64,000 bases of DNA from Acidobacteriota bacterium. Lineage in GTDB: Bacteria; Acidobacteriota; Blastocatellia; RBC074. The stretch lies in the NCBI GenBank assembly GCA_019639255.1, contig JAHBSF010000008.1:21148-85147 (forward strand). Direction: 5' to 3'. This document shows, piece after piece, positions 6,874 through 37,175 of the stretch (the stretch's first letter is position 1; each line of letters begins with the position of its first letter). Below the pieces are notes generated by a model, which was not told the DNA's origin, made no database searches, and saw nothing but the letters and a program-made list of their open reading frames with translations. Position numbers and translations under genes: made by a program.

Positions 6874-6875
6874 AC

Positions 6876-6969: not shown

Positions 6970-9631
6970 AAGGCTTGGCGTCCATCCAGTTTTTTCCGGC
7001 GCCGATTTCGACCACAAGCGGCACGGCAAGTTGCGCGGCGCTCTCCATTGCAGTCCTTATCACTTCGCTTGCCTGCGCGAGTTCCGCTTCGGGAACCTCA
7101 AAAATGAGTTCATCGTGCACCTGCAGGATCATGCGCGCCGAAAGTCCCGCTCTGCCGAGCGCGGCATCGGCCTTCAGCATCGCGATCTTCACTATGTCGC
7201 TTGCCGAACCCTGCATAGGCATATTGATCGCTTCGCGCTCGGCCCGCGCACGCAGGTTTCCGTTCTTGTGCTCCAGATCCGGAAGCCTTCTCAAGCGCCC
7301 GAAAATCGACCTCACAATGCAGCCCGAGTCGCGCGCACGGTCGGGCAGTTCTTCCATATATTTCCGCACACCGGCGTAGGTGCGGTAGTAATCCTCGATA
7401 ACTTTTCTTGCCTCGCCGCGCGGAATGTTGATGCGCTGAGCGAGGCCGAAAGCTCCGATTGCGTAGGCAATGCCGAAGTTGACGATCTTCGCTACGCGCC
7501 GCTTCTCCTTCAATTCCTCTTCGGTCTGCGCGCCGAAAACGCTGCGCGCCGTGCGCGCGTGAATGTCTTCGCCCTTGCGAAACGCGTCGAGCATCTCTGC
7601 GTCCTGGGTAATGTGCGCAAGCAGTCGCAGTTCTATCTGCGAATAATCCGCCGATAGCAGCACGTATCCGTCGGCCGGAATGAACGCGCGGCGTATGCGG
7701 CGGCCCATTGGGGTGCGTATCGGTATGTTCTGCAGGTTTGGTTCGGTTGAAGAAAGGCGCCCCGTAGCCGTAGCCGCCTGATTGAGCGTCGTGTGTATGC
7801 GTCCGTCGCGCGGATCTACGAGTTTCGGAAACGCATCGACGTAGGTGCCCTTGAGTTTCATCAACTCGCGGAACTCGATTACGAGGCGCGGCAATTCGTA
7901 TTTCAGCGCGAGTTCATCGAGTATGTCGCGGCTGGTCGAGATCTTTCCGGTCGATGTGCGGCGCGACACGTCGAAATTCAGACGCTCGAAAACCTCTCCG
8001 AGCTGCGAGGGCGAATTGATGTTGAACTCCTCGCCCGCGAGTTCATAAATCCGCACCGTGAGCGATTCTAGTTCCCGCTCCATCTCGCCTGAGAGTTCGG
8101 CAAGCACATTGGTATCGACGCGAAACCCGGCGCGCTCCATGCGGTAAAGCAGCGGAGCGAGCGGCAGTTCTATTTCGCGGTAGACTTTTGTAAGCCCTTC
8201 GGCTTCGAGGCGAGATGCAAGAACATCGGCCAATCTGTTCGTCAGATCGGCTGCGAGCAGTGCGCGAGCGGGCGCCGATTCCGGCTCGACCACGGATTGC
8301 TGCAGATACTCGCGCGCAAGATCTCCGGTTTCGTAGCGGTTGCGTTCGGGATCGAGCAGATAAGCGGCAAGCAGCGTATCGTCCGCAACATTGTTCAATG
8401 CGATACGCAATCTTTCGGCAGTGGGAATCGCACGTTTGAGATCGTGGACCGAGGATTCGAGCAAACCGTTGTCGAAGAGTTCCCCGAGCATATGCACCGC
8501 CGAATCCCGGTCCCCGCACGCTGCAAGGTCTACGAAATCGGCGCGACGCGGCGCACCCGAAAGCGCTACGCCGGATACGGATTCCTCATCAGGCGGATCG
8601 TCTGACGAATCGGCGACTGAATTGGCGGCATCGGCGAAAGCGAATGCAAAGCGGTCGCGGGCGAGCAGCGAATCTGCGAGTTTTTTTATATCTTCGAGAG
8701 AAGCGACGATATGGTATTCGCCCTCTGTCGCCTCCGAAGGCCGTGCGTTTGAATCCGACGGAGCGCCGGATGCGAATTCGCGAGTGAGTTGCGAGAATTC
8801 GAGTTCGGAGAAGAGTTCGTAGGCGAGGCGCGCGTCGGGTTGTTCGTATTTCAGTGCGTCGAGATCGAGAGAAACCGGAACGTTCAAATCTATGCGGGCG
8901 AGTTCGCGCGAGGTGCGAATGATTTCGGCGTTGTCGCGCAGGGATTCGCGATAGGTTTTCTTCTTTACCGATTCCCAGCCGGCGAGCGCACCCTCGATTG
9001 CGTCGAATTGTTCGAGCAACTGCACGGCGCCCTTTTCGCCGATGCCCGGAGCGCCGGGAATCATGTCGGTGGGATCGCCCATCAATCCGAGCAGATCCAC
9101 TACCTGATCGGCGCGCACGCCGAGACGCGCGCGCACGCCAGCCTCGTCGATCCATATTTCGCCGGCGCGGTCTATTTTCAGAATGATTACATCGGGATCG
9201 CGCACGAGCTGGCACAGGTCCTTGTCGCTCGAAACTATGACGGTCTGAACGCCCTCCGAAGACGCCTGACGCGCAAGCGTGCCGAGTATGTCGTCGGCTT
9301 CATAACGCGGAAGGCGAAGTACGGGCACGCGCAGCGCCTCGCATACGCGCTCGATGTAGGGCAGTTGCGCTACGAGGTCTTCGGGCATGTCGGGGCGGTT
9401 GGATTTGTATTTTTCGTAAGCCTCGTGGCGAAAGGTTTTTTCTTTGGAGTCGAGCACTACGCCGAGGTAATCGGGATTATGCGCCGAGATGAGTTTGCGC
9501 AGCATCATCGCGAAACCAAAGACGGCGTTTGTGGCCATTCCTTTGGAGTTCGAGAGGCCGCGAATCGCGTAATAAGCGCGATATATGTTCGACATTCCAT
9601 CGACGAGAAATAATCTTTTCCGGTCAGGCAT
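6968..9631 (-). CDS. polA: DNA polymerase I
   Basis: 5'-3' exonuclease N-terminus MPDRKRLFLVDGMSNIYRAYYA, Pol A motifs DYSQIELRLLAH and KIVNFGIAYA. Start chosen at the internal ATG (9631) matching the canonical N-terminus. The ORF continues upstream to 9730. Confidence 0.93.
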   Translation of the reverse strand: MPDRKRLFLVDGMSNIYRAYYAIRGLSNSKGMATNAVFGFAMMLRKLISAHNPDYLGVVLDSKEKTFRHEAYEKYKSNRPDMPEDLVAQLPYIERVCEALRVPVLRLPRYEADDILGTLARQASSEGVQTVIVSSDKDLCQLVRDPDVIILKIDRAGEIWIDEAGVRARLGVRADQVVDLLGLMGDPTDMIPGAPGIGEKGAVQLLEQFDAIEGALAGWESVKKKTYRESLRDNAEIIRTSRELARIDLNVPVSLDLDALKYEQPDARLAYELFSELEFSQLTREFASGAPSDSNARPSEATEGEYHIVASLEDIKKLADSLLARDRFAFAFADAANSVADSSDDPPDEESVSGVALSGAPRRADFVDLAACGDRDSAVHMLGELFDNGLLESSVHDLKRAIPTAERLRIALNNVADDTLLAAYLLDPERNRYETGDLAREYLQQSVVEPESAPARALLAADLTNRLADVLASRLEAEGLTKVYREIELPLAPLLYRMERAGFRVDTNVLAELSGEMERELESLTVRIYELAGEEFNINSPSQLGEVFERLNFDVSRRTSTGKISTSRDILDELALKYELPRLVIEFRELMKLKGTYVDAFPKLVDPRDGRIHTTLNQAATATGRLSSTEPNLQNIPIRTPMGRRIRRAFIPADGYVLLSADYSQIELRLLAHITQDAEMLDAFRKGEDIHARTARSVFGAQTEEELKEKRRVAKIVNFGIAYAIGAFGLAQRINIPRGEARKVIEDYYRTYAGVRKYMEELPDRARDSGCIVRSIFGRLRRLPDLEHKNGNLRARAEREAINMPMQGSASDIVKIAMLKADAALGRAGLSARMILQVHDELIFEVPEAELAQASEVIRTAMESAAQLAVPLVVEIGAGKNWMDAKP

Positions 9632-9827: not shown

Positions 9828-11063
9828 ATGGCAGTTGCATATATTATCGACGCCGTACGCTCGCCGCGCGGGCGGGGCAAGATGGGCAAGGGTGCATTGT
9901 CGGTCGTTCATCCGCAGGAGTTGCTTGCGCAGACGCTCAACGAACTCGCAGCGCGCACCGCGATCGACAAAAGCGAGGTTGACGACGTAGTGGCCGGGTG
10001 CGTATCGCAGGCGGGCGAGCAGGGCGGAGACATAGCTCGCAGCGCCGTGCTGACGGCGGGCTGGCCCATAGAGGTCACGGGAGTATCGCTCAATCGTTAC
10101 TGCGGCTCGGGGCTTCAGGCTGTGAACTTTACGGCTATGGGTGTGATGTCCGGGATGCAGAAACTCGTCGTCGGGGGAGGCGTAGAGAGCATGTCGCGCG
10201 TTCCGATGGGATCGGACGGCTCGGGCCTTGACGGCAACAATCCGCACCTGCGGCGCAGACATTTTCAGGTGCCGCAGGGCATCAGCGCCGATCTGATAGC
10301 CACGCTCGAAGGTTTCAGCCGCGAGGAAATCGACCGCTTCGCGCTGCGGTCGCAGCAACTCGCTGCACAGGCGATAAAGGAAGGGCGCTTCAACCGCAGC
10401 CTGTTTCCCGTAATCAACCCGGATACGAACGAAGTCGTACTCGAAGCCGACGAATATCCGCGCCCCTCGACTACGCTGGAGGCGCTCGCCGCACTCGAAC
10501 CCGCGTTCGTCGCGCTCGGAGCAACGCCCGTAGGGTCGAACGGAGAGACCGTCGACGAGTTGGTGCTCCGGAAATATCCGCAGGCGGGCGAAGTTCGGCA
10601 CGTGCATACGGCGGGCAATTCGAGCGGCATCGTGGACGGAGCGGCCGCCGTTTTGATTGCCTCCGAAGAATACGTCAGGGCGCACGGGTTGAAGGCGCGG
10701 GCGAAAGTCACGGCGATGGCTACGGCCGGGGCCGAACCGATGATTATGCTGACTGCGCCGACGCCCGCATCGCAGAAGGCGCTCGCGCAGCGGCGAATGA
10801 CGGCAAGCGACATCGATCTGTGGGAGATCAACGAAGCGTTTGCCACCGTGCCGATGCAGACGATGCGGAATCTCGGCGTAGATCCCGACCGCGTCAACGT
10901 CAACGGGGGCGCGATTGCGCTCGGACATCCACTGGGGGCTACGGGCGCTGTACTGCTCGGAACGGCTCTGGATGAACTCGAACGCCGCGGACTCGCAACG
11001 GCATTGATTACTCTGTGCATAGGCGGCGGTCAGGGTATCGCCACGATCATAGAACGCATTTAA
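9828..11063 (+). CDS. Acetyl-CoA C-acetyltransferase (thiolase II)
   Basis: RBS ggagga before the ATG at 9828. N-terminus [18 protein letters not shown] with active-site Cys region [11 protein letters not shown]-terminal [14 protein letters not shown] and CIGGGQG thiolase signatures. Confidence 0.9.
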
Positions 11064-11084
11064 CAAAGACTACGGGGGCAACGG

Positions 11085-11176
11085 ACTGAACGGAAGCAAC
11101 CAGAGAAATCGAACTTTTCCGTTTATTCCGTTCATTCCGGATGTTCCGGATGTTCCGGATGTTCCGTAGTCTCTCT
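11085..11176. repeat. Degenerate family-1 element carrying (GGATGTTCC)x3 tandem repeat
   Basis: cggaagcaaccagagaaatcgaacttttccgtttattccgttcattccggatgttccggatgttccggatgttccgtagtctctc. Confidence 0.6.
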
Positions 11177-11195
11177 TCGATATACGACTTCAGGC

Positions 11196-11340
11196 CAGCA
11201 ATACCCGGTTTAGAAAGAAAGAGAGATAACGGAACAAACGAAATGATACGAAAATTACCGAAAAGTCGAATATTTCCGTTTGTTCCGTCTTATTTCGTTT
11301 GTTCCGTTATCTCTCTTTCTTTCTAAACCGGGTATTGCTG
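11196..11340. repeat. Family-1 element (copy 4) with ~25-bp copy-specific extended palindromic flanks
   Basis: cagcaatacccggtttagaaagaaagagagataacgg ... ccgttatctctctttctttctaaaccgggtattgctg. The inverted repeat extends well beyond the family core. Confidence 0.9.
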
Positions 11341-11353: not shown

Positions 11354-14300
11354 TTGCCCATGCTAAATCTCACCCCGCTTCGCATACTCTCACTCGGCCT
11401 GTTTATCGTCGCCGCACTGCTCGCCTCCGGCGTCGTAGTCGCGCGGCAGGGGCAGACCCCGCAGGTCGTCACGGTTTCGGCAGCCGACTTCCAGGCGCGG
11501 ATTGCGCCCGATTCGATCGTAGCAACTTTCGGCGCGGGGCTTTCCACAACAACACTCGCCGCAGAATCGCTGCCGCTGCCCACTGAACTCGGCGGCACTA
11601 CCGTAACGGTCAGAGATTCGCAGGGGCGCGATTTTGCGGCGCCGCTGCTGTTTGTATCGCCCGCGCAGATCAACCATCTGATTCCGGGCGATGCGGCGCC
11701 GGGTGCGGCGCAAATAACGGTGCGTTCGGGGAATGGTTCGGTCGTTTCGGGTGCGATCCAGATCGTATTGGTTGCTCCGGCTATTTTCACTGCAAATCAG
11801 GATGGGCGCGGAGCGCCCGCGGCTATGGTGCTGCGCGTTGGGGCCGACGGCCGCCAGACCAACGAATCGCCCTCGATAATCGTCAACGGCAGGTTCATTC
11901 CGCGTCCGGTCGATCTGGGACCCGAGGACGAGAGGGTTTTTCTTGTTCTCTTTCTCACCGGGCTGCGCAACGCTCCGAATACGGACGGAAACAACGAAAA
12001 CGGATCGGCGGAAAATGTAAGGGTGCTGATCGGGGGCGTATTGCAGGCGCCGCTGTTTGCGGGAGCGCAGGGGAGTTTTGCCGGGCTGGATCAGGTGAAC
12101 GTAGAGATTCCGAGAACGCTGCTGGATCCTTCGCTGCCCGGCAGCCGGCAGATAAACGTTTCGTTAAAGGCGCCCGGGTTTACGGATTCCAACGAAGTAG
12201 AAATTGCGCTGGCTCCCGTTGCGGGTTCGGCCCTGGCGATAACCGGATTCGATGCGCCGCCGCAGGTGCTGGCGCATTCAGAAATTCAGCTCAACGGCGC
12301 CGGGATTTCCCCCGTGGTTTCCCGCAACAAGATAAGTTTCGGCGAAGGCGCGGGCGATGCGCGCCCCGGAGAAATCCGTGCGGCTTCCGCAACGCAGTTA
12401 TCGGCTTTGGTTCCCTTCGGCGCGGTTTCGGGACTTATTTCAGTCAATTCTGACGGCAGGAGCTGGACCAGCGAATCGCCGCTCGCGGTAAGAACATCCG
12501 TCAGCGCGCTTGTGCTCGACACCGACGGTCAGCCGTTTTCGCCGCTTTTCGGAGGGCGCGTATGTTTTCCGAACTGCTCGGCCGGCAGTTCGATCACCCA
12601 GATTCAGAGGGGCGGGTGGTTCGTTTTGCCGGATCCGCCTCCGGGCAATCGCCGCATATTCGTCATCGAGGCGCCGACCCAACCCGGGGCGCTTGCCTTC
12701 AACAGGACGACGATTTCATCGCCGATAGTCGCCGACCGGGACAATCCATTGCCGCAGCAGGTTTATCTGCAAGCCATCTACGGTCCCAGCGCAGCGATTG
12801 GAAGTTCAAGCGGTTTCAAACAGGCGCGCGAGGTGCGACAAACCCAGGTTCCGAAGGTCAGTCTCTCGATCGAAGGGTTTAATTTCACGCTGCCCGTAGA
12901 TGCGGATGCGACATTTCCCGACGGAACGAAGTCGGGAGTGCTGACGCTGACTCCGGTGAAAAACAGCCTGACTCCCGTACCGATGCCTCCGGCGATTTTC
13001 AGCTCCGCCGTAGTCCAGATTTCGCCCTTCGGCGTCGCGCTCCAGCCCGGAGGCGCTTTAACCTTCCCGAATCGGGACGGACTCGGACCCAATCCCGCTC
13101 CGACGCTTTTCAAATACGATATCAACAACGCAAGTTTCATAGACACCGGAATCAGGGCGGAACTGAGCGAGGACGGCAGATACTTCACCACACCCGATGG
13201 AGCGATCACCGAGACGAGCATTTATTTTGTAGCGGTAAAGCAGAAAACCACTACGATCGCGGGACGCGTACTTGAAAGCGACGACTCAACGCCGGTCAAG
13301 GGCGTCGTAGTCTCGGCGCGGGGTCGTTTCGCCACAACCGACGGCAATGGAGGGTACAGTCTGGCGCAGGTTCCGACCGGTGAAATTGATGAGTCCGAAG
13401 CGGCCCCGGCGCTGCACGGCGTTCATCAACGGGGGGCTGCCCTTTCGTCAAACGCACCCATCATTCTGCTGGCGAATTATTTGCGACCGAGCGGGCGAGC
13501 CGATACGACGATGCGCAACATTTCAAACCCCGTAACCGGGGGCATTACGGACGTGTCGCCGCTGCTGCTGCCGCCGCTTGATTCCAACCGCCCGCCGTCC
13601 ATAAACGTTGCAGGATACCTGACGATTTACGCAACCGAAACCCGGCAACTGCCCGTGCTCGTCACCGAACTTGACGACGGCCAGATGGTTGGCGATGTAA
13701 CGGTCGGCGGCGCGGACTTCGCTGCGCTCGAAGATGAAGGCGGCGGAGTATATTCGCTGCGGCTCTCACCTCAAACAAGCGATGTAGGTCAGCGTTTGCT
13801 TACCATAACCGCGACGGATTCAGAGGGCGGATCGACGAGCATCGATGTTACGGTCATCGTATTTCCGTTGCCTGCCGCCGCAGGGCAGACGAAAACGACG
13901 ACTCCCGATACTCCGGTTGCAATCGCGCTTCAGGGCATCGATGCGGATAACCTGCCGCTCACCTTTGCAATCGTTTCGCCGCCCGCCAACGGAACGCTTT
14001 CCGGCGCTCCTCCGGAAGTGATTTACACGCCCGGGGCGGGGTTTCTCGGAACCGACAGCTTCACCTTCAAGGCGAGCAACGGAATAGTCGAGGGGCCGCC
14101 GGCGGCGGTCACGATCAATGTCATCGATGCTGCGCCGGTGATTCAGGCGCTGTCGCCGGCATCGGTCGTCACAATCGACGGGGCTTTTGAATTGAAGGTG
14201 TTCGGAGAGGGATTTGCTCCGGGAGCCATGGTCAGATTCAACGGCGCTGCGCGGCAGACTACTTTTATTTCTGAAAACGAGGTGCGAGCGCAGATCACGG

Positions 14301-16486
14301 AAGAAGACGTTGCCAAGGCCGGCGCGGCGCCGGTCACGGTATTCAATCCCGCGCAGGTCGGGGGCGAATCAAACCTGCTGATTTTCACCATTCTCAATCC
14401 CGAACCAATCATCGAAAGCCTGATGCCCGACGCCGCGATATCCGAACACGACGGGTTTTTCCTGACCGTCAAGGGAATTCGTTTTACGGCCGGCTCTATC
14501 GTCTTCTGGAACGGCGCTCCGCGCTTTACGGAGTTTCTGGACAGCTCTACCCTGCTGGTTACGATCCCGACAAGCGATATCGCCGCCGCAGGCATCGTTC
14601 AGGTCACGGCAAACAATCCCGAACCCGGCGGCGGGGTATCGAATGCAAAGAACTTCACCATCAACAATCCGCTTCCGGTGCTTGCCTCGATCGATCCGAC
14701 AACGGCCAATGCAGGCGACCCGGCGTTGGTCCTGACCGTTACCGGAATGGATTTCAGGCCGCCGTCCGTTGTACGCATCAACGGCAGCGACCGGCCAACA
14801 ATCTATATAAGCTCCACAATGCTGACGGCGCAGATTGCAGCCGGCGATTTAATCGACGGGGGCGGCTACAGCATAACCGTATTCACGCCGGGCCCCGGGG
14901 GAGGCATATCCGAGCCGCAAACGCTGACGGTTTACAATCTGGATCCGCTCATCTCGTATGTCAGCAGGGCGTCAACTGAAATACCGCACTACGAGCCGCT
15001 GTTTACAGAAATAACCTATCAGGTAATCGGGTCACATTTTGTACCCTCATCGAAGGTCAAATGGGACGGCAACGAACGGCCGACAACCTATATAAGTTCG
15101 ACCCAGCTTTTGTTTCAGGCGCCCGTAATCCCTATAGGAGATGCCAACCGGGCGCATCCTGTAAAAGTAATCAACCCCGAGCCGGGAGGCGGAGAATCCA
15201 ACGCAGGAGTGGCGTTGGGACTTGATACCCTGAATCCGGAGATCCTGAGCGCCAACCCGGCATCCGCCGTAGCCGGCGGCCCCGACTTTACACTGGCGAT
15301 CGAGGGCAACAACTTTACGCCCGGATCGGTACTGAACTGGAACGGCAATCCGCGCCCCACTACCGTTACGGATACGAAACATCTGACGGCGGTGATTCCG
15401 GCATCGGACATCAGCGCATCGACTACCGCCGTATTGACGGTAACAAATCCTGCGCCTGTCCACCGAACTTCGAATCTTGTGAACTTCGCCGTCATTCCGC
15501 AACCGACGCCGCCCGGCGATGCGTTCCACGGCATTGAACTCGCGGCGCCTGCGGTAGTCATACTGCCGGGCGGCGATGCACTGCTTTTGGGCGGATTAAC
15601 GGCAAATACGCGGGAACCTTCGGCGGATGTGGACTTCTACAACCCCGCAACCGGACAAAGGGACTTCGCACCGCCGATGACCCGCGCTCGGGCCGGACAT
15701 ACGGCAACGCTGCTTGCATCCGGAGAAATCCTTGTCGTGGGCGGCATAGGAGTTGTCCCGGAAACGGATTCCAGTGCTGAAATTTATGATCCTGCGACCG
15801 GCGCCTGGCGAAGCGCAGCCGCGCCGCGGTTTGCGCACGTTGCACACACCTCGATTCCGCTTCGGGACGGAAGGATACTCGTCATCGGCGGAATGGATGA
15901 AAAGGGTGAAATCGGCAGCCGTGCTGAAATATATGACCCGGTCGCCGATCAATGGATGCCGGCAAGTGCGATGCTTGCCGGGCGCGCCGCAGCGACGGCG
16001 GTTCTGCTCGATGATGGACGTGTGCTTGTGGCCGGCGGTATCGGCGATGACGGATCGCTTGCCGTTTCCGAAATCTATGATCCGCAAACCGGCGTCTGGA
16101 CCTCAACCGGCGAATTGCATCTTGCGCGCCTCGGACACACTATGACGCGCCTTTCGGATGGCCGTGTATTGATCGCAGGAGGAACGGGCGAAGCCGCCGC
16201 GACGACATCCGAGGTATATGACCCATTGAGAGGAGACTGGGAATTTGCCGGGAATCCCGGAATCGGGCGCATGGCGCACAGCGCGATGCTGCTCCGGGAC
16301 GGACGCGTAATGATTACGGGCGGCAGGGACACGGCCGGACGCCTGCTGCGCGAGTGCGAAATTTATGACCCCCAAACCCGCTTGTGGGTCGAGGCCGCAC
16401 GACTATCGGAGCCTCGCGCCGGACATACTTCAATCCTGTCAGGCGACGGACGCCCCATCGCAATTGGAGGTCGAGGACTGCATTGA
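11354..16486 (+). CDS. Giant secreted surface protein with repeated IPT/TIG-like Ig domains, a Cna-B/carboxypeptidase-regulatory-like domain and a C-terminal Kelch-type beta-propeller
   Basis: Signal peptide MPMLNLTPLRILSLGLFIVAALLA. At least 8 repeats of ~90 aa ending ...NP(E/G)PGGG(E/V)SN (IPT/TIG-like). Cna-B-like region TTIAGRVLESDDSTPVKGVVVSARGRFATTDGNGGYSL. Six Kelch-like blades (GEILVVGG, DGRILVIGG, DGRVLVAGG and similar) at the C-terminus. Confidence 0.8.
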   Translation: MPMLNLTPLRILSLGLFIVAALLASGVVVARQGQTPQVVTVSAADFQARIAPDSIVATFGAGLSTTTLAAESLPLPTELGGTTVTVRDSQGRDFAAPLLFVSPAQINHLIPGDAAPGAAQITVRSGNGSVVSGAIQIVLVAPAIFTANQDGRGAPAAMVLRVGADGRQTNESPSIIVNGRFIPRPVDLGPEDERVFLVLFLTGLRNAPNTDGNNENGSAENVRVLIGGVLQAPLFAGAQGSFAGLDQVNVEIPRTLLDPSLPGSRQINVSLKAPGFTDSNEVEIALAPVAGSALAITGFDAPPQVLAHSEIQLNGAGISPVVSRNKISFGEGAGDARPGEIRAASATQLSALVPFGAVSGLISVNSDGRSWTSESPLAVRTSVSALVLDTDGQPFSPLFGGRVCFPNCSAGSSITQIQRGGWFVLPDPPPGNRRIFVIEAPTQPGALAFNRTTISSPIVADRDNPLPQQVYLQAIYGPSAAIGSSSGFKQAREVRQTQVPKVSLSIEGFNFTLPVDADATFPDGTKSGVLTLTPVKNSLTPVPMPPAIFSSAVVQISPFGVALQPGGALTFPNRDGLGPNPAPTLFKYDINNASFIDTGIRAELSEDGRYFTTPDGAITETSIYFVAVKQKTTTIAGRVLESDDSTPVKGVVVSARGRFATTDGNGGYSLAQVPTGEIDESEAAPALHGVHQRGAALSSNAPIILLANYLRPSGRADTTMRNISNPVTGGITDVSPLLLPPLDSNRPPSINVAGYLTIYATETRQLPVLVTELDDGQMVGDVTVGGADFAALEDEGGGVYSLRLSPQTSDVGQRLLTITATDSEGGSTSIDVTVIVFPLPAAAGQTKTTTPDTPVAIALQGIDADNLPLTFAIVSPPANGTLSGAPPEVIYTPGAGFLGTDSFTFKASNGIVEGPPAAVTINVIDAAPVIQALSPASVVTIDGAFELKVFGEGFAPGAMVRFNGAARQTTFISENEVRAQITEEDVAKAGAAPVTVFNPAQVGGESNLLIFTILNPEPIIESLMPDAAISEHDGFFLTVKGIRFTAGSIVFWNGAPRFTEFLDSSTLLVTIPTSDIAAAGIVQVTANNPEPGGGVSNAKNFTINNPLPVLASIDPTTANAGDPALVLTVTGMDFRPPSVVRINGSDRPTIYISSTMLTAQIAAGDLIDGGGYSITVFTPGPGGGISEPQTLTVYNLDPLISYVSRASTEIPHYEPLFTEITYQVIGSHFVPSSKVKWDGNERPTTYISSTQLLFQAPVIPIGDANRAHPVKVINPEPGGGESNAGVALGLDTLNPEILSANPASAVAGGPDFTLAIEGNNFTPGSVLNWNGNPRPTTVTDTKHLTAVIPASDISASTTAVLTVTNPAPVHRTSNLVNFAVIPQPTPPGDAFHGIELAAPAVVILPGGDALLLGGLTANTREPSADVDFYNPATGQRDFAPPMTRARAGHTATLLASGEILVVGGIGVVPETDSSAEIYDPATGAWRSAAAPRFAHVAHTSIPLRDGRILVIGGMDEKGEIGSRAEIYDPVADQWMPASAMLAGRAAATAVLLDDGRVLVAGGIGDDGSLAVSEIYDPQTGVWTSTGELHLARLGHTMTRLSDGRVLIAGGTGEAAATTSEVYDPLRGDWEFAGNPGIGRMAHSAMLLRDGRVMITGGRDTAGRLLRECEIYDPQTRLWVEAARLSEPRAGHTSILSGDGRPIAIGGRGLH

Positions 16487-16496: not shown

Positions 16497-16600
16497 CAAA
16501 AGAGAGATAACGGAACAAACGAAATTAGACGGAACAAACGGAAATATTCAACTTTTCCGTAATTTTCGTTTCATTTCGTTTGTTCCGTTATCTCTCTTTT
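16497..16600. repeat. Family-1 palindromic intergenic element (copy 5)
   Basis: aaaagagagataacggaacaaacgaaattagacggaacaaacggaaatattcaacttttccgtaattttcgtttcatttcgtttgttccgttatctctcttttc. Confidence 0.9.
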
Positions 16601-16758
16601 CTCCCAAACCGAGAATTGCCGCTGGCTGATATTCATTGGCCCCTTCGGAGAGTAATCAAGGAACTTAATTTCCAGTGTACCAAAGGGTCTAAAGGGTCCC
16701 AACGAGGGTAATTTCAATGCCTATTCCAATTCAGATACGGGGAAGCGCACACCAATCG

Positions 16759-19700
16759 ATGCGGCGCCAGACCTGGAAGAAGTATTTCTATGCTGGAATT
16801 ATCCTCCCATTAATCTCAGCCATTGCGTCGACAACGCCGGGTATTTCGGCTCGCGCTGTTCAATCCTCACAGGTTGTAACGGTTTCGGCAGCCGACTTCC
16901 AGGCGCGGATTGCGCCTGATTCGATCGTAGCAACTTTCGGCGCGGGGCTTTCCACAACAACGCTCGCCGCAGAATCGCTGCCGCTTCCGACCGAACTCGG
17001 CGGCACTACGGTAACGGTCAGAGATTCACAGGGGCGCGATTTTGCGGCGCCGCTGCTGTTTGTATCGCCCGCGCAGATCAACCACATCATTCCCGCCGAT
17101 GCCGTTCCCGGCGCGGCGCAGATAACGGTGCGTTCGGGGAATGGTTCGGTCGTTTCGGGTGCGATCCAGATTGCATCGGTCGCTCCAGCCATATTCACTG
17201 CAAATCAGGACGGGCGCGGAGCGCCTGCTGCGACCGCATTGCGCCTGGCCGCCGATGGTGAACAGACATCCGAACCGGTTGAGACCTTTGCCGACGGCAG
17301 ATTCATCCCGCGCCCGATCAACCTCGGGCCGGATGACGAACGCGTATTTCTTATTCTCTTCCTGTCGGGATTGCGCCGCACCCCGAATACCGACGGCAAC
17401 AACGACAACGGATCGGCGGAAAATGTAAGTGTGCTGATCGGGGGCGTATTGCAGGCGCCGCTGTTTGCGGGAGCGCAGGGGAGTTTTGCCGGGCTGGATC
17501 AGGTAAACGTAGAGATTCCGCGCCAGTTGCTGGATGCAACGTTGCCGGGCAGCAAACAGATCAACATATCGGTCCAGGTTTCGGGCTTTTCCGGATCGAA
17601 CGAGGTGGAAATCGCGCTGGCTCCGCCCACAGCGCCCCCGCTCGAAGTCACCGGCTTCAATGCGCCCGCGCAACTGCTCGCCAACTCCGGCATACAGATC
17701 CTCGGCAGCGGACTCGATCCGGAAGCGGCAAACAACCGCGTAAGCTTCGGCGAGGGCACCGGGGATGTCCGCCCCGGCGAAGTGCGCACGGCGAGTTCAT
17801 CCGACCTCTCGGTGATCGTCCCGTTCGGCGCCGTAAGCGGCAGGATCGCGCTCAACTCCGACGGGCGCAGGTGGACAAGCGATCAGGAACTGCAGGTGAG
17901 AACCTCCTTCAGCGCCCAGATCAAGGATACCGAGGGGCAACCTCTGTCGTCCGTGCTCGGCGCGCGCGTATGCGCACCCGACTGCACGGGAAACAATCCT
18001 TCAACGAATATTCAGACCGGCGGGTGGTTTGTGCTGCCCGACCCGCTGCCCGGTGCGCGGCGCGTATTTTCCATCGAACCTCCCCAAACCGCGGGCGCGC
18101 TGCCGTTCAACCGCATTACGGTCGCATCGCAGGTCATCGCCGGCCGCGACAACCACCTGCCGCAGGAAATCTACATTCAGACCATTTACGGACCGAGCGG
18201 AACCATCGGAAGCAGCTTCGCCGGAAACAGCCCGCCCGGTAATACGGCGGCGGCCGGTGCATCCACCTCAACCGTAAAGCAGACGGCGCAGGGAAACGCG
18301 TTTAGTCTGGCGATCGAGGGATTCCGCTTTACGCTGCCCGCAGGCGCCACGGCGATGTTTCCAAACGGCGCGACAAACGGCCAGGTCACGTTGACGCCGG
18401 TAAAAAACAGCCTGACTCCGGTGCCGATGCCGCCGAATGTTTTCAGCTCCGCCGTAGTCCAGATTTCGCCCTTCGGCGTCAAACTTGCACCCGGTGGAAA
18501 GCTGTTCTTTCCCAACCGCGACGGATTCGGCACGCAGGTCATTCCGACGCTCTATAAATACGATCTGGAATCCGCCGCATTCATCGACACCGGAATAAGG
18601 GTGACGATAGGCGATCAGGGCGTACTCGAAACGCCCGACGGCGCAATCACAGAAACGAGCATATATTTCCTGGCCGTGCGCCGCGAATCTACGACGATCG
18701 TGGGCCGCGTATTTGACGGCGACGGGCGCACGCCGGTGCGTGGAGCTGTGGTTTCCACGCGCGGACAACAGGCCGTTACCGACGGCAACGGCGGATACAT
18801 ACTCTCTTCGGTGCCCGTAGGCGATAGCGCAGATATTGGACCATTCGGCGGAGCCAACGCCGGAGCCAACGCCGGAGCGCGCCCCGCAGCGCCCGCCCAG
18901 GATCAGGTGATCGTTACATCGAGTTATCTGCGGCCGAGCGGCAAGACCGATATAAGAAGCGTAACGGTCGACAATATCGACATCGGAGGCGTAACGCAGG
19001 CGCCCGCAATAGTGCTGCCGCCGGCTGCGAGCAACCGCCCGCCCGTAATATATGCGCCCGGACACCTGACGCTTTATTCCGACGAGATGCTGGAGGCAAC
19101 CGTCACGGTAGACGATCCCGACCCCAACCAGACCATAGCATCTGCAACCGTGACCGGAGCCTCATTCGCATCGCTTGCAGCAGCGGGATCGGGATCATAC
19201 ACGCTGAGACTCGCTCCCACGCCGGCCGATACAGGAACACATACGCTGACGATCACGGCCGCCGACAGCGCGGGCGCAAGCGCGTCGTTTCAGGCTACGA
19301 TCATCGTCTTCCCCCCGCCTGCGGCCAATGCGCTCGCCGTTTCTACAAACGAGGATACGCCTCTTGCGATAGTCCTGCCCGGCAGCGGCGGAAACGGCTC
19401 GCCGCTGGTCTTTACCATCGTTGAAGCACCGATGCACGGAGTGCTTGCGGGCGCGCCGCCCAATCTGGTTTACACACCGAATCAGGATTACATCGGCGCC
19501 GACGGCTTCCGCTTCCAGACAAGCGACGGAACGAGGACGAGCGCGCCTGCGACCGTGACGATTACGATAAATGACGTAAACGACCCGCCTCAACTTACCG
19601 TTACGTGTTCGGTGCAGGGCAACATTACGACCGGCACGCCGATTACCTGTCAGGTTTCGGCGTCCGATCCGGACGTGGGGCAGTTTCTGCTAATTTCAGC

Positions 19701-22700
19701 CGATAATCTGCCGGCGGGGGCCACGTTTGATCCGGATACGGGGCTGTTCGCCTGGACGCCGGGGCCGGACCAGGCAGGCAGCCACTCGGTCACCTTCAAG
19801 GTCATAGACAGCGGAACGCCGCCGCTCACGGATCTGAAGACCGTAGGGTTTTTCGTATTCAATGCGCAACCGGTCATCACGTCGCTGCAGCCCGCGATGG
19901 CGACGATTTTACAGGAACCGATGATCCTGACTGTTACTGGGCAGGGCTTCGTGCTGGGTTCCGAAGTGCGGTGGAACGGCTCGCCGCGTGATACGAGTTT
20001 CCTCGGCACGACGCAACTCCATGCGCTCATACAGCCCGACGATCTGACGACGATCGGCACAGTGGTCGTGACGGTATTCAACCCGGGGCCCGGCGGCGGA
20101 TTGTCGGCTGCGGTCAACTATTCGATAGTAAATCCCGTGCCCACGATCGCAGGGTTTCTCAGCGTTACTCCGCCTTTTAATTTCATGTTTTTTGAATCGG
20201 GGATGCTGCTGGTCGGGACGGGATTTGTGCCCGGTTCAGTGGCGCGATGGGACGGAGTAGACCGCCCGACGAGTTACGTCAGTCCGACGCAACTGGGAAT
20301 ATCGATACCGATGGTACCGGTAGCCGAGGCGCTCAATACGCATTCGATAACCGTATTTAATCCCGGCCCCGGGGGAGGCGAATCGAACGCGCTCACCGGG
20401 TTTTCGGTTTCGAACAATCCGGGGACCATCTTTTTCACTGATCCGGAATCGGTCGATGCCGGAAGCGGGGAGTTCCAGCTTACGATATTTGGAGGAGGGT
20501 TCGTCCCAGGTGCGACGGCGAACTGGAACGGCAGTCCGAGGCCGACCGGCCCGGTTTCGCTCGCATTCGGCGGAGCAGGCACACAGTTGACGGTAACGAT
20601 TTCAGCCGAGGACGTGGCTGAGGGTGGATTTGGGATGCTGACAGTTACCAATCCGCCGCCGTTTGACAATACCTCCGCCCCGTTCGCATTCCCGATCAAT
20701 CTGCCGCAGCCCGTACTGACGACCGCCGAGCCCCCATCTGTGCCGGAATTCCAGTATCTCTTCACCGAAGAGGAAATCAGCCTCGGAGGCGCAGGCTTCA
20801 CTCCTCAATCCGTGGTGCGATGGGACGGCGACGACCGGCCCACGACATACATAAGCTCGGCCCAACTCACATTTACAGCACCCATAATTCCCGTATCGGA
20901 AGCCCTGAGTTTTCACGATATCAGGGTATTCAATCCGCTGCCGGGAGGGGGGCTGTCGGATCCGCTGTTTTTCCTCCCGCTCAGCAACACGCCGCCGTCG
21001 ATCTCTATGGTAACGCCCGGTTCCGCCACTGCGGGAGGGCCGGGTTTCGAACTCACGGTTACCGGCTCGTACTTCGCACCCGGAGCAGTACTGAACTGGA
21101 ACGGCAGTCCGCGGCCGACCACGGTTTCAAGCTCTACCGAACTCACGGCTACTATTTCGGCTGCGGATATCATGACGGCGGGCATGGCGAGTTTGACCGT
21201 ATTGAATCCCGTACCCCTTGCTACAATCTCCACTATCTTTCCGTTTACGATTCATCCGCAGCCGACCATCTCCGCACTCGGCCCGGATTCCGTTACGCTG
21301 ACGATTCCGTCGCAGGAGTTGGAGATTTGGGTTTTCGGGGCGAACTTCCTCCCGCAGACGGTTATCCACTTTGACGGCTCTCCGGTTCCGACCACATACC
21401 TGGACGATATGACGATGTCGTTCGTCCGGCCGCCCATCACGGACAGCCAGGCCGGGTTCTATAACGTCACGGCGGTAAATCCTGCGCCGGTGACTCCTTC
21501 GTCGCCCGTAGTATTTACGGTCTTCAACCCGGGTACGCTGATCGATAACCTGGACCCGATGTTTGCCGATCTGGGCGGTCCTGCGTTTACTCTGGCGGTT
21601 TCCGGAAACGGGTTTGTGCAGGAGTCGGTAGTGCGATGGAACGGCAGCGACCGGCCGACGACGTACTTTTCAAAAAACTTTCTGGAGGCCGAGATCCCGG
21701 CAGAGGATCTTTCATCTCCCGGGTTTGTTGGGATAACGGTATTCAATCCGGCGCCGGGCGGCGGCGAGTCGATGCCCGTTGATTTCTTCATCGGGGCTCC
21801 ATTTACCTTCACGGGCAGCGAGCCTGCCGCAGCCGGTCTACCCGGGGGCGAAGTGCTGCTTGCAGGAGGCAGGGACGAAAACAGTCATACGCCGATTGCG
21901 CGGGTCGAGATATTCAGCCCCGCGACCGGTATACTGCAAGCCGCATCGCCGATGTTTGCACCGCGGGCCGGACATACGGCGACGGCGCTCGCCACCGGAG
22001 AAGTACTGGTCATCGGCGGTCTCGGCGCATCCGACGAGCGACAGACTGCGGCGCAGAGCGCAGAGATTTACGATCCCTCGACGGGTGCGTGGCGGCGCGC
22101 ATCGGCTCCGAACTTCGCGCACATATCGCATACGGCTACGCTGATGGCGGACGGCCGCGTGCTTGTAGCGGGCGGAATGGATGAAACCCTTGCCCTGAGC
22201 CGGCGCGCGGAAATCTACGATCCGGCCTCGGACGTATGGACCGAAGCTGTAGCTTTAACAACGCAGCGCGCGTCAGCCAAGGCATTGCTGCTTGATGACG
22301 GGCGCGTGCTGGTTGCGGGCGGCGCAGGTGAGGGCGGCGATCTTGCAGGCGTCGAAATTTATGACGCGCAGGCAGATGCCTGGACGCAGGCAAGCGATAT
22401 GAATTTGGCCCGCTCCGGGCATACGTTGACGCTTATACCGGGCGGCGGCGTGCTTGCCGTAGGAGGAAAACAGCAGGATGCCGCCGCAGTCGCGGAAATC
22501 TACGATCCGGCCGCAAACGCGTGGGAAGCGTCGGGAAGATTAACGGTTGCGCGCAGCGCTCACAGCGCAACGCCTCTTGCGAACGGGCGAGTACTGGTTG
22601 CGGGCGGGCGCGGCGTGGACGGGCGGCTGCTCGATGAATGCGAAGTTTACGATCCGCAGAAAGCGGCGTGGTCCGAAGCGCCGCGATTGAAGGAACCCAG

Positions 22701-22779
22701 AGAGCGCCATACTGCGGTGGTACTGAGCGACGGACGCGTTGCGGCCGTAGGCGGGCGCCGTGAGAAGAAAGAGAGATAA
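16759..22779 (+). CDS. Giant secreted IPT/TIG-repeat / Kelch-propeller surface protein, tandem paralog of 11354-16486
   Basis: Same architecture with about 14 IPT/TIG-like repeats and a C-terminal Kelch propeller. The N-terminal ~120 aa are nearly identical to the upstream paralog at DNA level. Start could be the upstream ATG 16717 or 16759; 16759 begins a hydrophobic signal-like segment. Confidence 0.8.
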   Translation: MRRQTWKKYFYAGIILPLISAIASTTPGISARAVQSSQVVTVSAADFQARIAPDSIVATFGAGLSTTTLAAESLPLPTELGGTTVTVRDSQGRDFAAPLLFVSPAQINHIIPADAVPGAAQITVRSGNGSVVSGAIQIASVAPAIFTANQDGRGAPAATALRLAADGEQTSEPVETFADGRFIPRPINLGPDDERVFLILFLSGLRRTPNTDGNNDNGSAENVSVLIGGVLQAPLFAGAQGSFAGLDQVNVEIPRQLLDATLPGSKQINISVQVSGFSGSNEVEIALAPPTAPPLEVTGFNAPAQLLANSGIQILGSGLDPEAANNRVSFGEGTGDVRPGEVRTASSSDLSVIVPFGAVSGRIALNSDGRRWTSDQELQVRTSFSAQIKDTEGQPLSSVLGARVCAPDCTGNNPSTNIQTGGWFVLPDPLPGARRVFSIEPPQTAGALPFNRITVASQVIAGRDNHLPQEIYIQTIYGPSGTIGSSFAGNSPPGNTAAAGASTSTVKQTAQGNAFSLAIEGFRFTLPAGATAMFPNGATNGQVTLTPVKNSLTPVPMPPNVFSSAVVQISPFGVKLAPGGKLFFPNRDGFGTQVIPTLYKYDLESAAFIDTGIRVTIGDQGVLETPDGAITETSIYFLAVRRESTTIVGRVFDGDGRTPVRGAVVSTRGQQAVTDGNGGYILSSVPVGDSADIGPFGGANAGANAGARPAAPAQDQVIVTSSYLRPSGKTDIRSVTVDNIDIGGVTQAPAIVLPPAASNRPPVIYAPGHLTLYSDEMLEATVTVDDPDPNQTIASATVTGASFASLAAAGSGSYTLRLAPTPADTGTHTLTITAADSAGASASFQATIIVFPPPAANALAVSTNEDTPLAIVLPGSGGNGSPLVFTIVEAPMHGVLAGAPPNLVYTPNQDYIGADGFRFQTSDGTRTSAPATVTITINDVNDPPQLTVTCSVQGNITTGTPITCQVSASDPDVGQFLLISADNLPAGATFDPDTGLFAWTPGPDQAGSHSVTFKVIDSGTPPLTDLKTVGFFVFNAQPVITSLQPAMATILQEPMILTVTGQGFVLGSEVRWNGSPRDTSFLGTTQLHALIQPDDLTTIGTVVVTVFNPGPGGGLSAAVNYSIVNPVPTIAGFLSVTPPFNFMFFESGMLLVGTGFVPGSVARWDGVDRPTSYVSPTQLGISIPMVPVAEALNTHSITVFNPGPGGGESNALTGFSVSNNPGTIFFTDPESVDAGSGEFQLTIFGGGFVPGATANWNGSPRPTGPVSLAFGGAGTQLTVTISAEDVAEGGFGMLTVTNPPPFDNTSAPFAFPINLPQPVLTTAEPPSVPEFQYLFTEEEISLGGAGFTPQSVVRWDGDDRPTTYISSAQLTFTAPIIPVSEALSFHDIRVFNPLPGGGLSDPLFFLPLSNTPPSISMVTPGSATAGGPGFELTVTGSYFAPGAVLNWNGSPRPTTVSSSTELTATISAADIMTAGMASLTVLNPVPLATISTIFPFTIHPQPTISALGPDSVTLTIPSQELEIWVFGANFLPQTVIHFDGSPVPTTYLDDMTMSFVRPPITDSQAGFYNVTAVNPAPVTPSSPVVFTVFNPGTLIDNLDPMFADLGGPAFTLAVSGNGFVQESVVRWNGSDRPTTYFSKNFLEAEIPAEDLSSPGFVGITVFNPAPGGGESMPVDFFIGAPFTFTGSEPAAAGLPGGEVLLAGGRDENSHTPIARVEIFSPATGILQAASPMFAPRAGHTATALATGEVLVIGGLGASDERQTAAQSAEIYDPSTGAWRRASAPNFAHISHTATLMADGRVLVAGGMDETLALSRRAEIYDPASDVWTEAVALTTQRASAKALLLDDGRVLVAGGAGEGGDLAGVEIYDAQADAWTQASDMNLARSGHTLTLIPGGGVLAVGGKQQDAAAVAEIYDPAANAWEASGRLTVARSAHSATPLANGRVLVAGGRGVDGRLLDECEVYDPQKAAWSEAPRLKEPRERHTAVVLSDGRVAAVGGRREKKER

Positions 22780-22883
22780 CGGAACAAACGAAATAAGACG
22801 AAAACTACGGAAAAGTTGAATATCGTTGAATATTTCCGTGCTTTTCGTCTCATTTCGTTTGTTCGGTGGCTTCTTTTCTTCTC
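22765..22883. repeat. Family-1 element (copy 6) with duplicated loop (gttgaatatcgttgaatat) and degenerate right arm
   Basis: gaagaaagagagataacggaacaaacgaaataagacgaaaactacggaaaag...ttccgtgcttttcgtctcatttcgtttgttcggtggcttcttttcttctc. Confidence 0.85.
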
Positions 22884-22960
22884 TCAATACACTTCGTTTA
22901 TGCAGTACTGAGGGGCTCTCAGGGATATGATGTGGTGGCATCAGAATGGAGGATGCGGCC

Positions 22961-24100
22961 ATGATTAAGGAAATTTCGCTGGAGAATTTCAGAAACCACT
23001 CAAAGACGACGATCAGGCCCGGTCGTGTGACGGCGCTTGTCGGGACGAATGGGAGTGGCAAGACTTCTCTGCTCAAAGGCCTTAATCATCTTACGAAATC
23101 CCTCCAGAGAATCGACCAGGGATTCTCCTGGGACTCTTATTTCCAAGGAGACTGCGACCCCGCAGTGATCGTGCGGCGTGGACAGACTCACGTCTCCTTC
23201 GGTGCTGAAGGGGGAGATAAAACTGCCGATTGGTCGATCCAGATCGGCCTCAACTTGTCACCAAACCCATCTGTCCCCTCAAAAAGCCTGCCTCTGGATT
23301 GCAAGGCAAGGTATGGAGGTCAGCGTTATGACATGCACCAAGCCAGTCTGAAAGATAAAAACCCGCTTGAGCTAGCAAGAAAAGCGCTGGGAGAATCTTT
23401 TTACTTCAAAGGAATTGGGCAAAACATTGCCCGGCCCACCTACTCACCACATACTACGCCCCTACTTGAGGCAGATGGCAGTTATCTGGCTTCAGTGATT
23501 GCCTACCTGATGACTAATGAACGAGGTAAGGTTGAAGAAATCGAAAAGTCGTTGCGCGCTATTGTTCCGATTGTCAGGCAAATTCGCGTCAAGCCAACAA
23601 AGCTGACTTGGCAGGAAAAGAAAGTCGTCTCAATCAACGGCACTCAGGTGCCCTATGAAGAGCAGAGGGAAGTCATCGGCCATCAGTTGCTGATCGATAC
23701 TAACAGCGCCGATGAGGTGCCAGCCGACGCCTTGAGTGAGGGAACACTTCTTGTTCTGGCGGTACTGACTGTGCTTTGGGGGCCGGCTTGTCCGAAATTG
23801 ATTTTATTGGACGATGTCGAGCAGGGTCTCCATCCTATTGCCCAGCGCGAAACAATGCAGATACTTAGACAATTCGCTGAGCAGCAGCAGAGGCAAATCA
23901 TCGTCACGAGCCATTCACCATATATCATTGACGAACTTGACCCACAGGATGTGTGGGTAATGGCGACCGATGCGAAAGGAGTAAGTATCACCAAATGTCT
24001 GAAAGATCACCCTGACTCCGAGCGCCTCAAACAGGTGCTTACAACCGGCGAACTGATTGGCGCCGTCGGTGAAGATTGGGTAATACATCAAGCCCAATGA
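22961..24100 (+). CDS. ABC-type (AAA_21/OLD-like) ATPase, candidate defence-system ATPase subunit
   Basis: N-terminus MIKEISLENFRNHSKTTI. Walker A GTNGSGKTSLL, ABC signature-like LSEGTLLVL, Walker B LILLDDVEQGLHP, H-loop IIVTSHSPYI. About 50% GC versus >60% in the flanks. An alternative ATG lies at 22946. Confidence 0.75.
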   Translation: MIKEISLENFRNHSKTTIRPGRVTALVGTNGSGKTSLLKGLNHLTKSLQRIDQGFSWDSYFQGDCDPAVIVRRGQTHVSFGAEGGDKTADWSIQIGLNLSPNPSVPSKSLPLDCKARYGGQRYDMHQASLKDKNPLELARKALGESFYFKGIGQNIARPTYSPHTTPLLEADGSYLASVIAYLMTNERGKVEEIEKSLRAIVPIVRQIRVKPTKLTWQEKKVVSINGTQVPYEEQREVIGHQLLIDTNSADEVPADALSEGTLLVLAVLTVLWGPACPKLILLDDVEQGLHPIAQRETMQILRQFAEQQQRQIIVTSHSPYIIDELDPQDVWVMATDAKGVSITKCLKDHPDSERLKQVLTTGELIGAVGEDWVIHQAQ

Positions 24101-24896: not shown

Positions 24897-25131
24897 GAAT
24901 CTCTCAGAGCGTGTTTTGAAAGCCCCGAAGGGGCGAAAGATCTGTAGCCTGGTGCGCAAGCGCCAGGTCAAATCGAGAAACGCGTCCGAGCCCTGAAAGG
25001 GCGAAAGACCTATACAACGGGGATCTTCCGCCCTTTCAGGGCTGAAATTGATGTTGGCCCGATACCCAGGGCTTACGCCGCTGGGCTACAGGTCTCTCGC
25101 CCCTTCAGGGCTTTCAAAACACGCTCTCAGA
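24897..25131. repeat. Family-2-related large nested palindrome (variant copy C)
   Basis: ctctcagagcgtgttttgaaagccccgaaggggcgaaagatctgtagcc...ggctacaggtctctcgccccttcagggctttcaaaacacgctctcagag. Shares the core ggcgaaagatctgtagcc with copies at 35.4 kb and 53.6 kb. Confidence 0.8.
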
Positions 25132-26872: not shown

Positions 26873-26902
26873 AAGCCCAGTGGTGTACCGATGATGGAAC
26901 GA

Positions 26903-37167: not shown

Positions 37168-37175
37168 GCATTGCG

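Follow-up and report, generated by a model that had tools for sequence, protein, structure and literature searches.

A dispersed family of palindromic ACGGAA repeats at gene 3' ends in a Blastocatellia genome

The 64,000-nt stretch of Acidobacteriota bacterium DNA analyzed here (class Blastocatellia; GenBank assembly GCA_019639255.1, contig JAHBSF010000008.1, positions 21,148 to 85,147), referred to below as the window, carries genes that include hemA, polA, topA and a his cluster, and the gaps between its genes are occupied again and again by a palindromic repeat of about 100 bp built on the hexamer ACGGAA. We read the sequence of one such element at 16497-16601 and found that it matched the consensus proposed in a preliminary description of the window. 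The 22-nt arm end TTTCGTTTGTTCCGTTATCTCT occurred 28 times in the window with up to three mismatches, compared to no occurrence in 100 shuffles. An nhmmer profile made from six copies, with which the window was searched up to E = 10, returned 21 sites. These were exactly the sites listed in the preliminary description and none besides, with starts no more than about 25 nt from the positions given there; copies are indeed present at the listed positions 11196 and 61281, but at these two positions longer palindromes begin, inside which copies 11216 and 61305 lie.

Sixteen of the 21 copies were roughly full length (83-124 nt), the remaining five (32654, 39477, 41224, 43285, 52881) being half copies, single arms or fragments, and all 21 were intergenic. 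Together the elements made up 3.3% of the window and formed, as had been proposed, AT-rich islands in GC-rich DNA (36.9% GC compared to 58.9% for the window). The family was not restricted to the window, since other genomes carry it and the 10 kb to the left on the same contig held four full copies, one of which was the window's copy at 135, and two partial ones, that is, four to five additional copies; the density of about one copy per 3 kb thus continued beyond the window. The sequence covered amounted to 74 kb of this genome and to pieces of 8-22 kb of the other carriers. ACGRAA hexamers were 46 times denser within elements than outside them (60 compared to 1.3 per kb), and a genome-wide enrichment of the uptake-signal type was ruled out because ACGGAA was unremarkable outside the elements. 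Pairwise identity between copies was 75% at the median and reached 96% at most. That the family is a chance feature or an assembly artefact has practically no probability left and can be considered refuted, both by the shuffled sequences and by the recurrence of the repeat in independent NCBI, ENA, JGI and Logan assemblies.

Each element consisted of an inverted pair of arms around a short centre, and each arm of a terminal box followed by about four ACGRAA units in tandem. The purine-rich terminal box RAAGAGAGAT was followed by four 9-bp units, ACGGAACAA, ACGGAAATA, ACGGAACAG and ACGGAAA..., and the arm consensus was RAAGAGAGAT-ACGGAACAA-ACGAAATAAG-ACGAAAAYT-ACGGAAA in this genome and AGAGAGATR-ACGGAACAR-ACGGAAATA-ACGGAACAG-ACGGAA in other species. 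The elements ended in AGAGAGAT / ATCTCTCT, and the outer tail after the stem was CTCTCTTYY. The preliminary description had counted about eight hexamers per copy at spacings of 9-10 bp, and the commonest count of four per arm bore this out. The spacing was likewise recovered (9 bp in 54 cases and 10 bp in 24 in this genome; 9 bp in 178 of 207 cases and 18 bp in 18 in other species), but its equation with one helical turn did not hold: with a period of 9 bp, the arms are tandem arrays, not sites phased on the 10.5-bp helical repeat. Alignment showed the hexamer columns to be invariant or nearly so across species and sub-families, with the 9-bp period kept in other species, whereas the spacers, the terminal box and the loop vary. 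Within this genome the loop was mostly GTTGAATAT, in either orientation, and the earlier statement that loops differ between copies was not borne out. The number of units had changed in two copies (TTCCGGATG three times at 11059; TTCCGTTTA three times at 43285).

Full copies formed hairpins with fold energies between -40 and -65 kcal/mol (z-scores between -8 and -15) whichever strand was folded, and the stem was AT-rich and ~45 bp long (37% GC). The preliminary description had also proposed that the arms co-vary so that pairing is preserved. When 33 copies from nine genomes were aligned, the arms were paired in 94.5% of cells, and changes on both sides were seen in 42 cells compared to 14.7 +/- 3 in shuffles, with none of 500 shuffles reaching the observed value; sliding the partner columns lowered pairing to 38-55%. 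Column pair 15/116, for example, was AU in 13 copies, GC in six, UA in three and CG in two. The co-variation sat in the variable columns, and the hexamer columns hardly changed. Since both-side changes exceed those in shuffles and the variable columns co-vary, we conclude that arm-to-arm pairing is maintained, yet pairing alone does not account for the invariant hexamers.

We examined the position of the copies using gene calls from a codon-usage model, checked against recorded calls where these existed. Copies in the window lay -29 to +37 nt from a stop codon, and about ten open reading frames (ORFs) ended a few codons inside an element. Five of six convergent gaps and about 13 of the 17 same-direction gaps that exceed 40 bp were occupied, compared to one of seven divergent gaps, and that one by a fragment. 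The claim that every type of gene junction is occupied therefore stands for convergent and same-direction junctions but not for divergent ones; one full copy did lie between divergent genes just outside the window. Convergent gaps were filled exactly in several cases (6869, 57421). Other genomes gave a median stop-codon distance of ~14 nt, with 13 copies in convergent, 23 in same-direction and seven in divergent gaps. Copies were also found within operons, at the hisD-hisC junction, between the ThiF and GHMP kinase genes (a half copy) and between the M28 and M20 peptidase genes, with less than 60 bp of spacer to spare. This is too little for a promoter, which speaks against a strong terminator. 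Canonical terminator-like sites numbered 24 in 1-20 kb, which equals the chance expectation, and none coincided with an element.

The family was found in at least 12 Blastocatellia genomes. Scanning a collection of species-representative genomes with the arm 22-mer gave at least 35 loci from at least 11 species-level genomes, of which the correctly labelled ones were all Blastocatellia or Acidobacteriota; L040, L041 and L075 were found besides (L-numbers are our labels for loci or contigs from other assemblies). Among 80 metagenomic topA loci the family was present only in L075, where three copies with ACGAAA units lie within 7.9 kb, and copy density elsewhere was much lower than in this genome. 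Viral contigs scanned with the 22-mer gave no match, nor did a plasmid collection searched with blastn in distant mode. Three binchicken genomes with matches (records CAYWDW01, CAZXZU01 and CAYYDG01; loci L001, L003, L011, L012, L015, L017, L020, L022-L025, L028, L031 and L034) are labelled 'uncultured Heliomicrobium sp.' or 'Heliobacteriaceae', and their sequence is Blastocatellia-like: L012 was 89-93% identical to a Blastocatellia contig, and an L011 protein had Acidobacteriota and Blastocatellia homologues at 73-76% identity. Spread across phyla was ruled out because these three genomes are Blastocatellia by sequence.

The individual copies, for which fold energies, nhmmer E-values and gene contexts all refer to window coordinates, illustrate how closely the elements fit the gene ends. 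The near full-length copy at 125-227 (E = 3e-26) lies between convergent gene ends; its left terminal box is degenerate and its right flank bears an extra module of ~25 nt resembling the outer arm of copy 61305. The full copy at 2167-2273 (E = 4e-31) lies 17 nt past the upstream stop codon between a ccsA-like gene (Cytochrom_C_asm) and hemA, which run in the same direction, and that at 6869-6972 occupies the entire gap between the convergent peptidase S8 and polA genes, with both stop codons at its edges. The copy at 11059-11180 is divergent in sequence (E = 1e-9), its right arm having been expanded by unit-number slippage. It is followed by a full copy at 11216-11320 enclosed by a longer perfect palindrome (11196-11340), whose outer arms of 20 nt are found at no other place in the window. 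The full copy at 16497-16601, on which the preliminary description had centred, matches copy 11216 at 96% identity when flipped, and its fold energy is -58.6 kcal/mol on the plus strand and -53.3 kcal/mol on the minus strand. These two copies are the most similar pair in the window, and they stand beside two giant tandem genes (11360-16486 and 16759-22779, encoding 1708 and 2006 amino acids), each of which has an ACGGAA element before and after it. The giant genes have Kelch, TIG and bacterial Ig domains in common as well as an identical short DNA motif, and appear to be paralogues.

Past the second giant gene, a full copy at 22766-22885 has a duplicated loop (GTTGAATAT twice), and the upstream ORF ends 12 nt inside it. 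The adjoining region at 22946-24853, where GC is lower (55-56%), holds a gene for an AAA_21 (AbiEii-like) ATPase and then a 250-aa ORF without a Pfam match, and may be a small defence or toxin-antitoxin-like cassette. The full copy at 26900-27004, with a degraded right inner arm, lies at the 3' end of a cation-efflux gene on the minus strand, and the full copy at 28718-28823 lies 37 nt past the stop codon of the minus-strand NamZ gene. Only the left arm is present at 32654-32731, where this half copy takes up all 50 nt between the ThiF and GHMP-kinase genes; at the orthologous site L008 is empty. A full copy at 37047-37170 occupies the hisD-hisC junction within the his cluster, a junction that is occupied in L008 and empty in L040. 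Only the right arm is present at 39477-39556, between the convergent hisH and Pyridox_ox genes, where L040 and L075 have a full copy and L039 a different GC-rich palindrome. The copy at 41224-41313, with a truncated left arm, lies between the convergent hisA and ROK genes, a site that holds an ACGAAA variant in L075 and other palindromes in L039, L042 and L073.

The right-arm fragment at 43285-43351, between the 5' ends of the GFO gene and topA, is the only element in a divergent gap of the window, and the full copy at 46050-46167, just 3' of topA, has a variant terminal box and one extra outer ACGGAA unit. A full copy at 49507-49611 lies 8 nt past the stop codon of the minus-strand UDP-GlcNAc 2-epimerase gene, and a short right-arm fragment at 52881-52934 (E = 1e-3) lies between glpX and tdk on the minus strand. 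The copy at 55810-55917, full but diverged, leaves 7 nt of spacer between the same-direction peptidase M28 and M20 genes, and the full copy at 57421-57525, which folds at -65 kcal/mol, fills its convergent gap with 0 and 3 nt to spare. An EamA ORF ends 29 nt inside the full, diverged copy at 59986-60090. The copy at 61305-61390 has a shortened centre and lies inside a near-perfect palindrome of 150 nt (61273-61422) with a fold energy of -100.5 kcal/mol.

A second repeat family of ~190-200 bp is present in three copies (24910-25110, 35510-35710 and 53756-53955), in intergenic gaps without an ACGGAA element. The two ends of this repeat are inverted copies of the Rfam Acido-Lenti-1 motif, with matches at 35521-35568 (minus strand, 35.5 bits) and 35651-35697 (plus strand, 37.4 bits) and at 53766-53814 (minus strand, 26 bits) and 53896-53943 (plus strand, 28 bits). 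For this reason the 'Acido-Lenti-1 RNA' looks here like the terminal inverted repeat of an element resembling a miniature inverted-repeat transposable element (MITE).

Comparison of orthologous sites (3' of topA, hisH and hisA, and the hisD-hisC junction) showed that they hold genome-specific variants of the repeat, other palindromes or nothing. The window, L040 and L041 each carried a variant of their own 3' of topA, and L040 uses AACC-ACGGAACAC-ACGGAAAG at two different sites. In L039, the closest relative found (TopA 85% identical), a GC-rich palindrome resembling repetitive extragenic palindromic (REP) sequences, GGCCGCCGAAAGGCGGGACTCAAAAC..., lies 3' of hisH and hisA (2584-2649 and ~4950-5010); this motif is absent from the window. 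Elsewhere the sites 3' of hisA or topA carry tandem-unit palindromes of CTGAAAA (L042), TGGAAAA/TGACAAA (L073) or GCGCAAAG (L044, L068, L071 and L110), and L073 and L114 have an apparent relic of the first ACGGAA unit beside a newer hairpin. Because relatives carry other tandem-unit palindromes at the same sites, these comparisons indicate that the architecture is general in the clade, that the unit is lineage-specific and that sites turn over. L005 and L012, with about 90% nucleotide identity in that region, had one and the same copy at the same site with the same unique centre, which identifies this copy as vertically inherited.

Hairpins of related build were also seen more widely. Many Acidobacteria loci contain long hairpins, often just past genes, with arms made of 7-8 bp tandem units (GATTGCG, GATTCGA, GCGCAAAG, CTGAAAA, TGGAAAA/TGACAAA, GAAGRCA); examples lie in L041 (7149-7238 and 18590-18696), L042 (5740-5830 and 12011-12095), L044 (3102-3178), L073 (5663-5744), L087, L088 (676-749 and 8437-8489) and, downstream of topA, in L068, L071 and L110. 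Tandem-unit hairpins like the short tandemly repeated repetitive (STRR) elements of cyanobacteria appear to be general in the phylum. L005 has, at 2650-3110, a 430-bp insertion compared to L012, with a GTAG-headed palindrome (CCCCGTAGTAACGAATTCATTCGTT...) and a second GC-rich palindrome, so that other repeat families coexist with ACGGAA elements in that genome. In L040 (4695-5989) hisD is split into three ORFs, and the GHMP kinase and Epimerase_2 genes are fragmented too; these splits are probably frameshift errors of the assembly and not real pseudogenes.

Given the anatomy, abundance, position, hairpin stability, co-variation, species distribution and turnover at orthologous sites described above, we favour, with moderate confidence, the view that the repeat is a lineage-specific, non-coding dispersed palindromic family of the broad class that includes REP sequences and bacterial interspersed mosaic elements (BIMEs), MITEs and STRRs, spread by copy-and-paste, transcribed into 3' and intercistronic hairpins and probably recognized by a protein. 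The copies of this genome have a common loop and identical mismatches between left and right arms, in both orientations, and because of this common loop and asymmetry they must, to judge from their alignment, descend from one master sequence. We infer that this master was copied into either orientation and that copies were retained in the short non-coding stretch just past stop codons. The element would be transcribed within the flanking mRNAs, forming its ~45-bp stem on whichever strand is transcribed, and its most likely effect would be that of a REP-like 3' or intercistronic hairpin. Such a hairpin could act as a barrier to 3' exonucleases, as a weak or partial bidirectional terminator or processing site (a strong terminator being unlikely), and possibly as an obstacle to ribosomes at the stop codon. 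The hexamer array would be the recognition lattice of a putative protein that mobilizes, homogenizes or binds the copies, a protein we propose because the hexamers are far more conserved than pairing requires.

Several observations weigh against this view. No target-site duplication was found: direct repeats of 3-8 bp at offsets of 0-13 nt flanking 44 copies were not above those of shuffled flank pairs. There was no transposase in the window and none recurring beside elements in ~0.4 Mb of element-bearing loci, where the only ORF families that recurred beside elements were orthologues and common enzyme families. In other species the arms were ~90% alike and the centres unrelated, a pattern that simple copying and decay does not explain and that therefore requires selection on the arms or gene conversion. 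The AT-rich stem of ~45 bp is followed by CTCTCTTYY without a T-run, unlike known terminators. Finally, stability showed no bias to the transcribed strand, the sense strand being the more stable in 7 of 12 copies, so that selection could act on DNA and not on RNA, and the constraint may be on DNA, RNA or both; strand asymmetry was uninformative and was set aside. Two copies of the window and some sub-families elsewhere lie inside longer palindromes. Only 3 of 44 copies (11216 and 61305 in the window, and one in L020) had flanks with extended complementarity at near-symmetric offsets, and asymmetric outer repeats were present in a few sub-families. Insertion into pre-existing palindromes was thereby ruled out as a general rule and retained as an occasional event; nesting may come from occasional insertion into hairpins already present or from a palindrome growing outward.

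The lack of target-site duplications bears on the suggestion in the preliminary description that the repeat is a non-autonomous MITE, which in its classical form would be a deletion derivative of an insertion sequence (IS) mobilized through its terminal inverted repeats by a DDE transposase encoded elsewhere. The repeat is dispersed, multi-copy, non-coding and ~100 bp long with inverted ends, it is inserted in both orientations, it is patchily present at orthologous sites and its density differs strongly between genomes, all as expected of a MITE. However, the defining duplication was not found at any offset in 44 copies, the search for a cognate transposase or partner IS returned nothing in the window or in the ~0.4 Mb, no pair of arms brackets a longer segment, cargo or transposase, and the copies are old (median identity 75%). 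We therefore regard a classical MITE as very unlikely. A bidirectional terminator, also among the roles first suggested, would mean that the host has selected one sequence as the standard terminator of its genome, whose purine-rich 5' and pyrimidine-rich 3' tracts stop polymerase both ways. Occupation of five of six convergent gaps, often by exact fill, proximity to stop codons, the absence of competing canonical terminators and the presence of other long hairpins at the same gene ends in relatives all agree with this. It fits poorly with the in-operon copies, whose spare spacer is too short for a new promoter, with a stem that is far longer than termination needs and shows nothing of the pattern of a GC-rich stem and T-run, with the persistence of half copies, and with the finding that only 14 of 62 related lineages had a markedly structured region downstream of topA; moreover, structure alone leaves the invariance of the hexamers unexplained. 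We consider a strong, host-selected terminator rather doubtful.

That invariance across species, with spacers free to vary, is what would be expected if the repeat were instead an array of double-stranded DNA sites for a nucleoid-associated, partition/iteron-like or regulatory protein, on which eight ACGGAA hexamers at 9-bp intervals load a filament and the palindromy is secondary. The strict 9-bp period, the absence of an RNA sense-strand bias and the conservation of arms around freely varying centres in other species are consistent with such an array. Plain double-stranded sites would not need pairing, however, and the compensatory changes show that pairing of the arms matters; no protein is known as a candidate, outside the elements the hexamer shows no enrichment, and the ACGAAA, CTGAAAA and GCGCAAAG units of sister lineages would each need a protein of different specificity. 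We judge this explanation quite unlikely. Returning to the dispersed palindromic family that we favour, a further-reaching version of it, which we put forward only tentatively and think rather improbable, is that the ACGGAA lattice is the docking array of a dedicated putative protein, either a new kind of mobilizing or homogenizing enzyme or a binder of nucleic-acid hairpins, that co-evolves with the unit (ACGGAA in this genome, ACGAAA in that of L075, and 7-8 bp units such as GATTGCG, GATTCGA, GCGCAAAG and CTGAAAA in other Acidobacteria), and that this repeat-plus-protein system is general in Acidobacteria. If this were true, the system would be analogous to REPs and their REP-associated tyrosine transposases (RAYTs) but mechanistically distinct, and might also explain the STRRs of cyanobacteria.

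Blastocatellia are abundant soil bacteria for which there are very few genetic tools, and to our knowledge almost nothing is known of their transcript ends and genome organization. A repeat that makes up ~3% of this genome and adjoins roughly two-thirds of its longer intergenic gaps is for that reason the obvious candidate to consider first when a 3'-end or processing signal is sought in these bacteria. It is also of practical concern: several adjoining ORFs end a few codons inside an element, and the repeat probably breaks assemblies. What is unusual about it is the combination of arm pairing with an invariant, 9-bp-periodic motif, together with its replacement by other tandem-unit palindromes in sister lineages. 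This offers a tractable comparative system for the old question of whether REP- and STRR-like repeats owe their persistence to usefulness or to an ability to spread well.

We compared the element with the known families that it resembles. The preliminary description had not recognized its consensus as a described repeat family, and this assessment held: searches with Rfam at gathering thresholds gave no hit on the element, the only family that passed in the window being Acido-Lenti-1, elsewhere; permissive thresholds gave only generic miRNA-precursor hairpin matches far below threshold; and literature searches on the sequence strings, on Acidobacteria MITEs and on Chloracidobacterium palindromic repeats turned up no description of the family. 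Integron attC sites, imperfect palindromes with RYYYAAC / GTTRRRY cores that follow each cassette of a one-directional array beside intI, were rejected from the gene context: the neighbours, in both orientations, have housekeeping functions (his, hemA, polA, topA), there is no integrase, and the ends of the element are AGAGAGAT / ATCTCTCT. An intrinsic (Rho-independent) terminator shares with the element a symmetric hairpin between convergent genes with a purine-rich 5' side and a pyrimidine-rich 3' side, but has a GC-rich stem of 5-14 bp, compared to an AT-rich stem of ~45 bp (37% GC) that ends in CTCTCTTYY instead of a T-run, lies in operons as well and persists in half copies. MITEs such as Correia/NEMIS of Neisseria, Nezha of cyanobacteria and RUP/BOX of pneumococcus are likewise small, non-coding and multi-copy with inverted ends, can fold as RNA, can supply stop codons or alter the 3' ends of their neighbours and differ strongly in copy number between lineages. 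They are defined, however, by target-site duplications and a cognate IS, and in the ACGGAA element the inverted repeat spans the entire element and is internally periodic.

The closest parallels are with REPs and STRRs. REPs are transcribed with their flanking genes, stabilize transcripts and can stall ribosomes near stop codons (PMC12306157), and the REP unit is an imperfect palindrome of 20-40 nt with a GTAG or CGTC head (PMC3733652). Like REPs and BIMEs, the ACGGAA element is high-copy (21 copies in 64 kb), extragenic and palindromic, lies at gene 3' ends and between cistrons, often a few nucleotides from stop codons, and has a species-specific consensus with signs of concerted evolution; like REP doublets forming hairpins (REPINs), it is a hairpin of ~100 nt made of two inverted halves. 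It differs in that a REP half folds on itself, whereas here the arm is a direct array of four 9-bp units that is not self-complementary, in being AT-rich in a GC-rich genome, and in its conserved end, RAAGAGAGAT. GTAG is present only in the inner unit of some copies and is not kept in other species, so that the element is not a GTAG- or CGTC-headed palindromic unit, and no RAYT or transposase-like gene was found in the window or recurring beside elements in the 74 kb covered here and the 8-22 kb pieces of other carriers. STRRs are hairpins of 7-bp units between cyanobacterial genes, of unknown function, for which an effect on transcript stability has been suggested (PMC2670836). The likeness lies in the pairing of an intergenic array of short tandem units with an inverted counterpart, which gives a hairpin between genes, and 7-bp and 8-bp versions are also present in the Acidobacteria loci that we examined. 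STRR units, however, are 7 bp long and near-identical, form arrays of variable length and belong to the cyanobacterial phylum, whereas the element described here has four distinct 9-bp units in fixed order and a conserved terminal box and is repeated whole as a composite of ~100 bp. The architecture is thus the same as that of STRRs and the family is not: the ACGGAA repeat is a previously undescribed family of a familiar repeat kind with an unusual internal architecture, and not a new kind of system.

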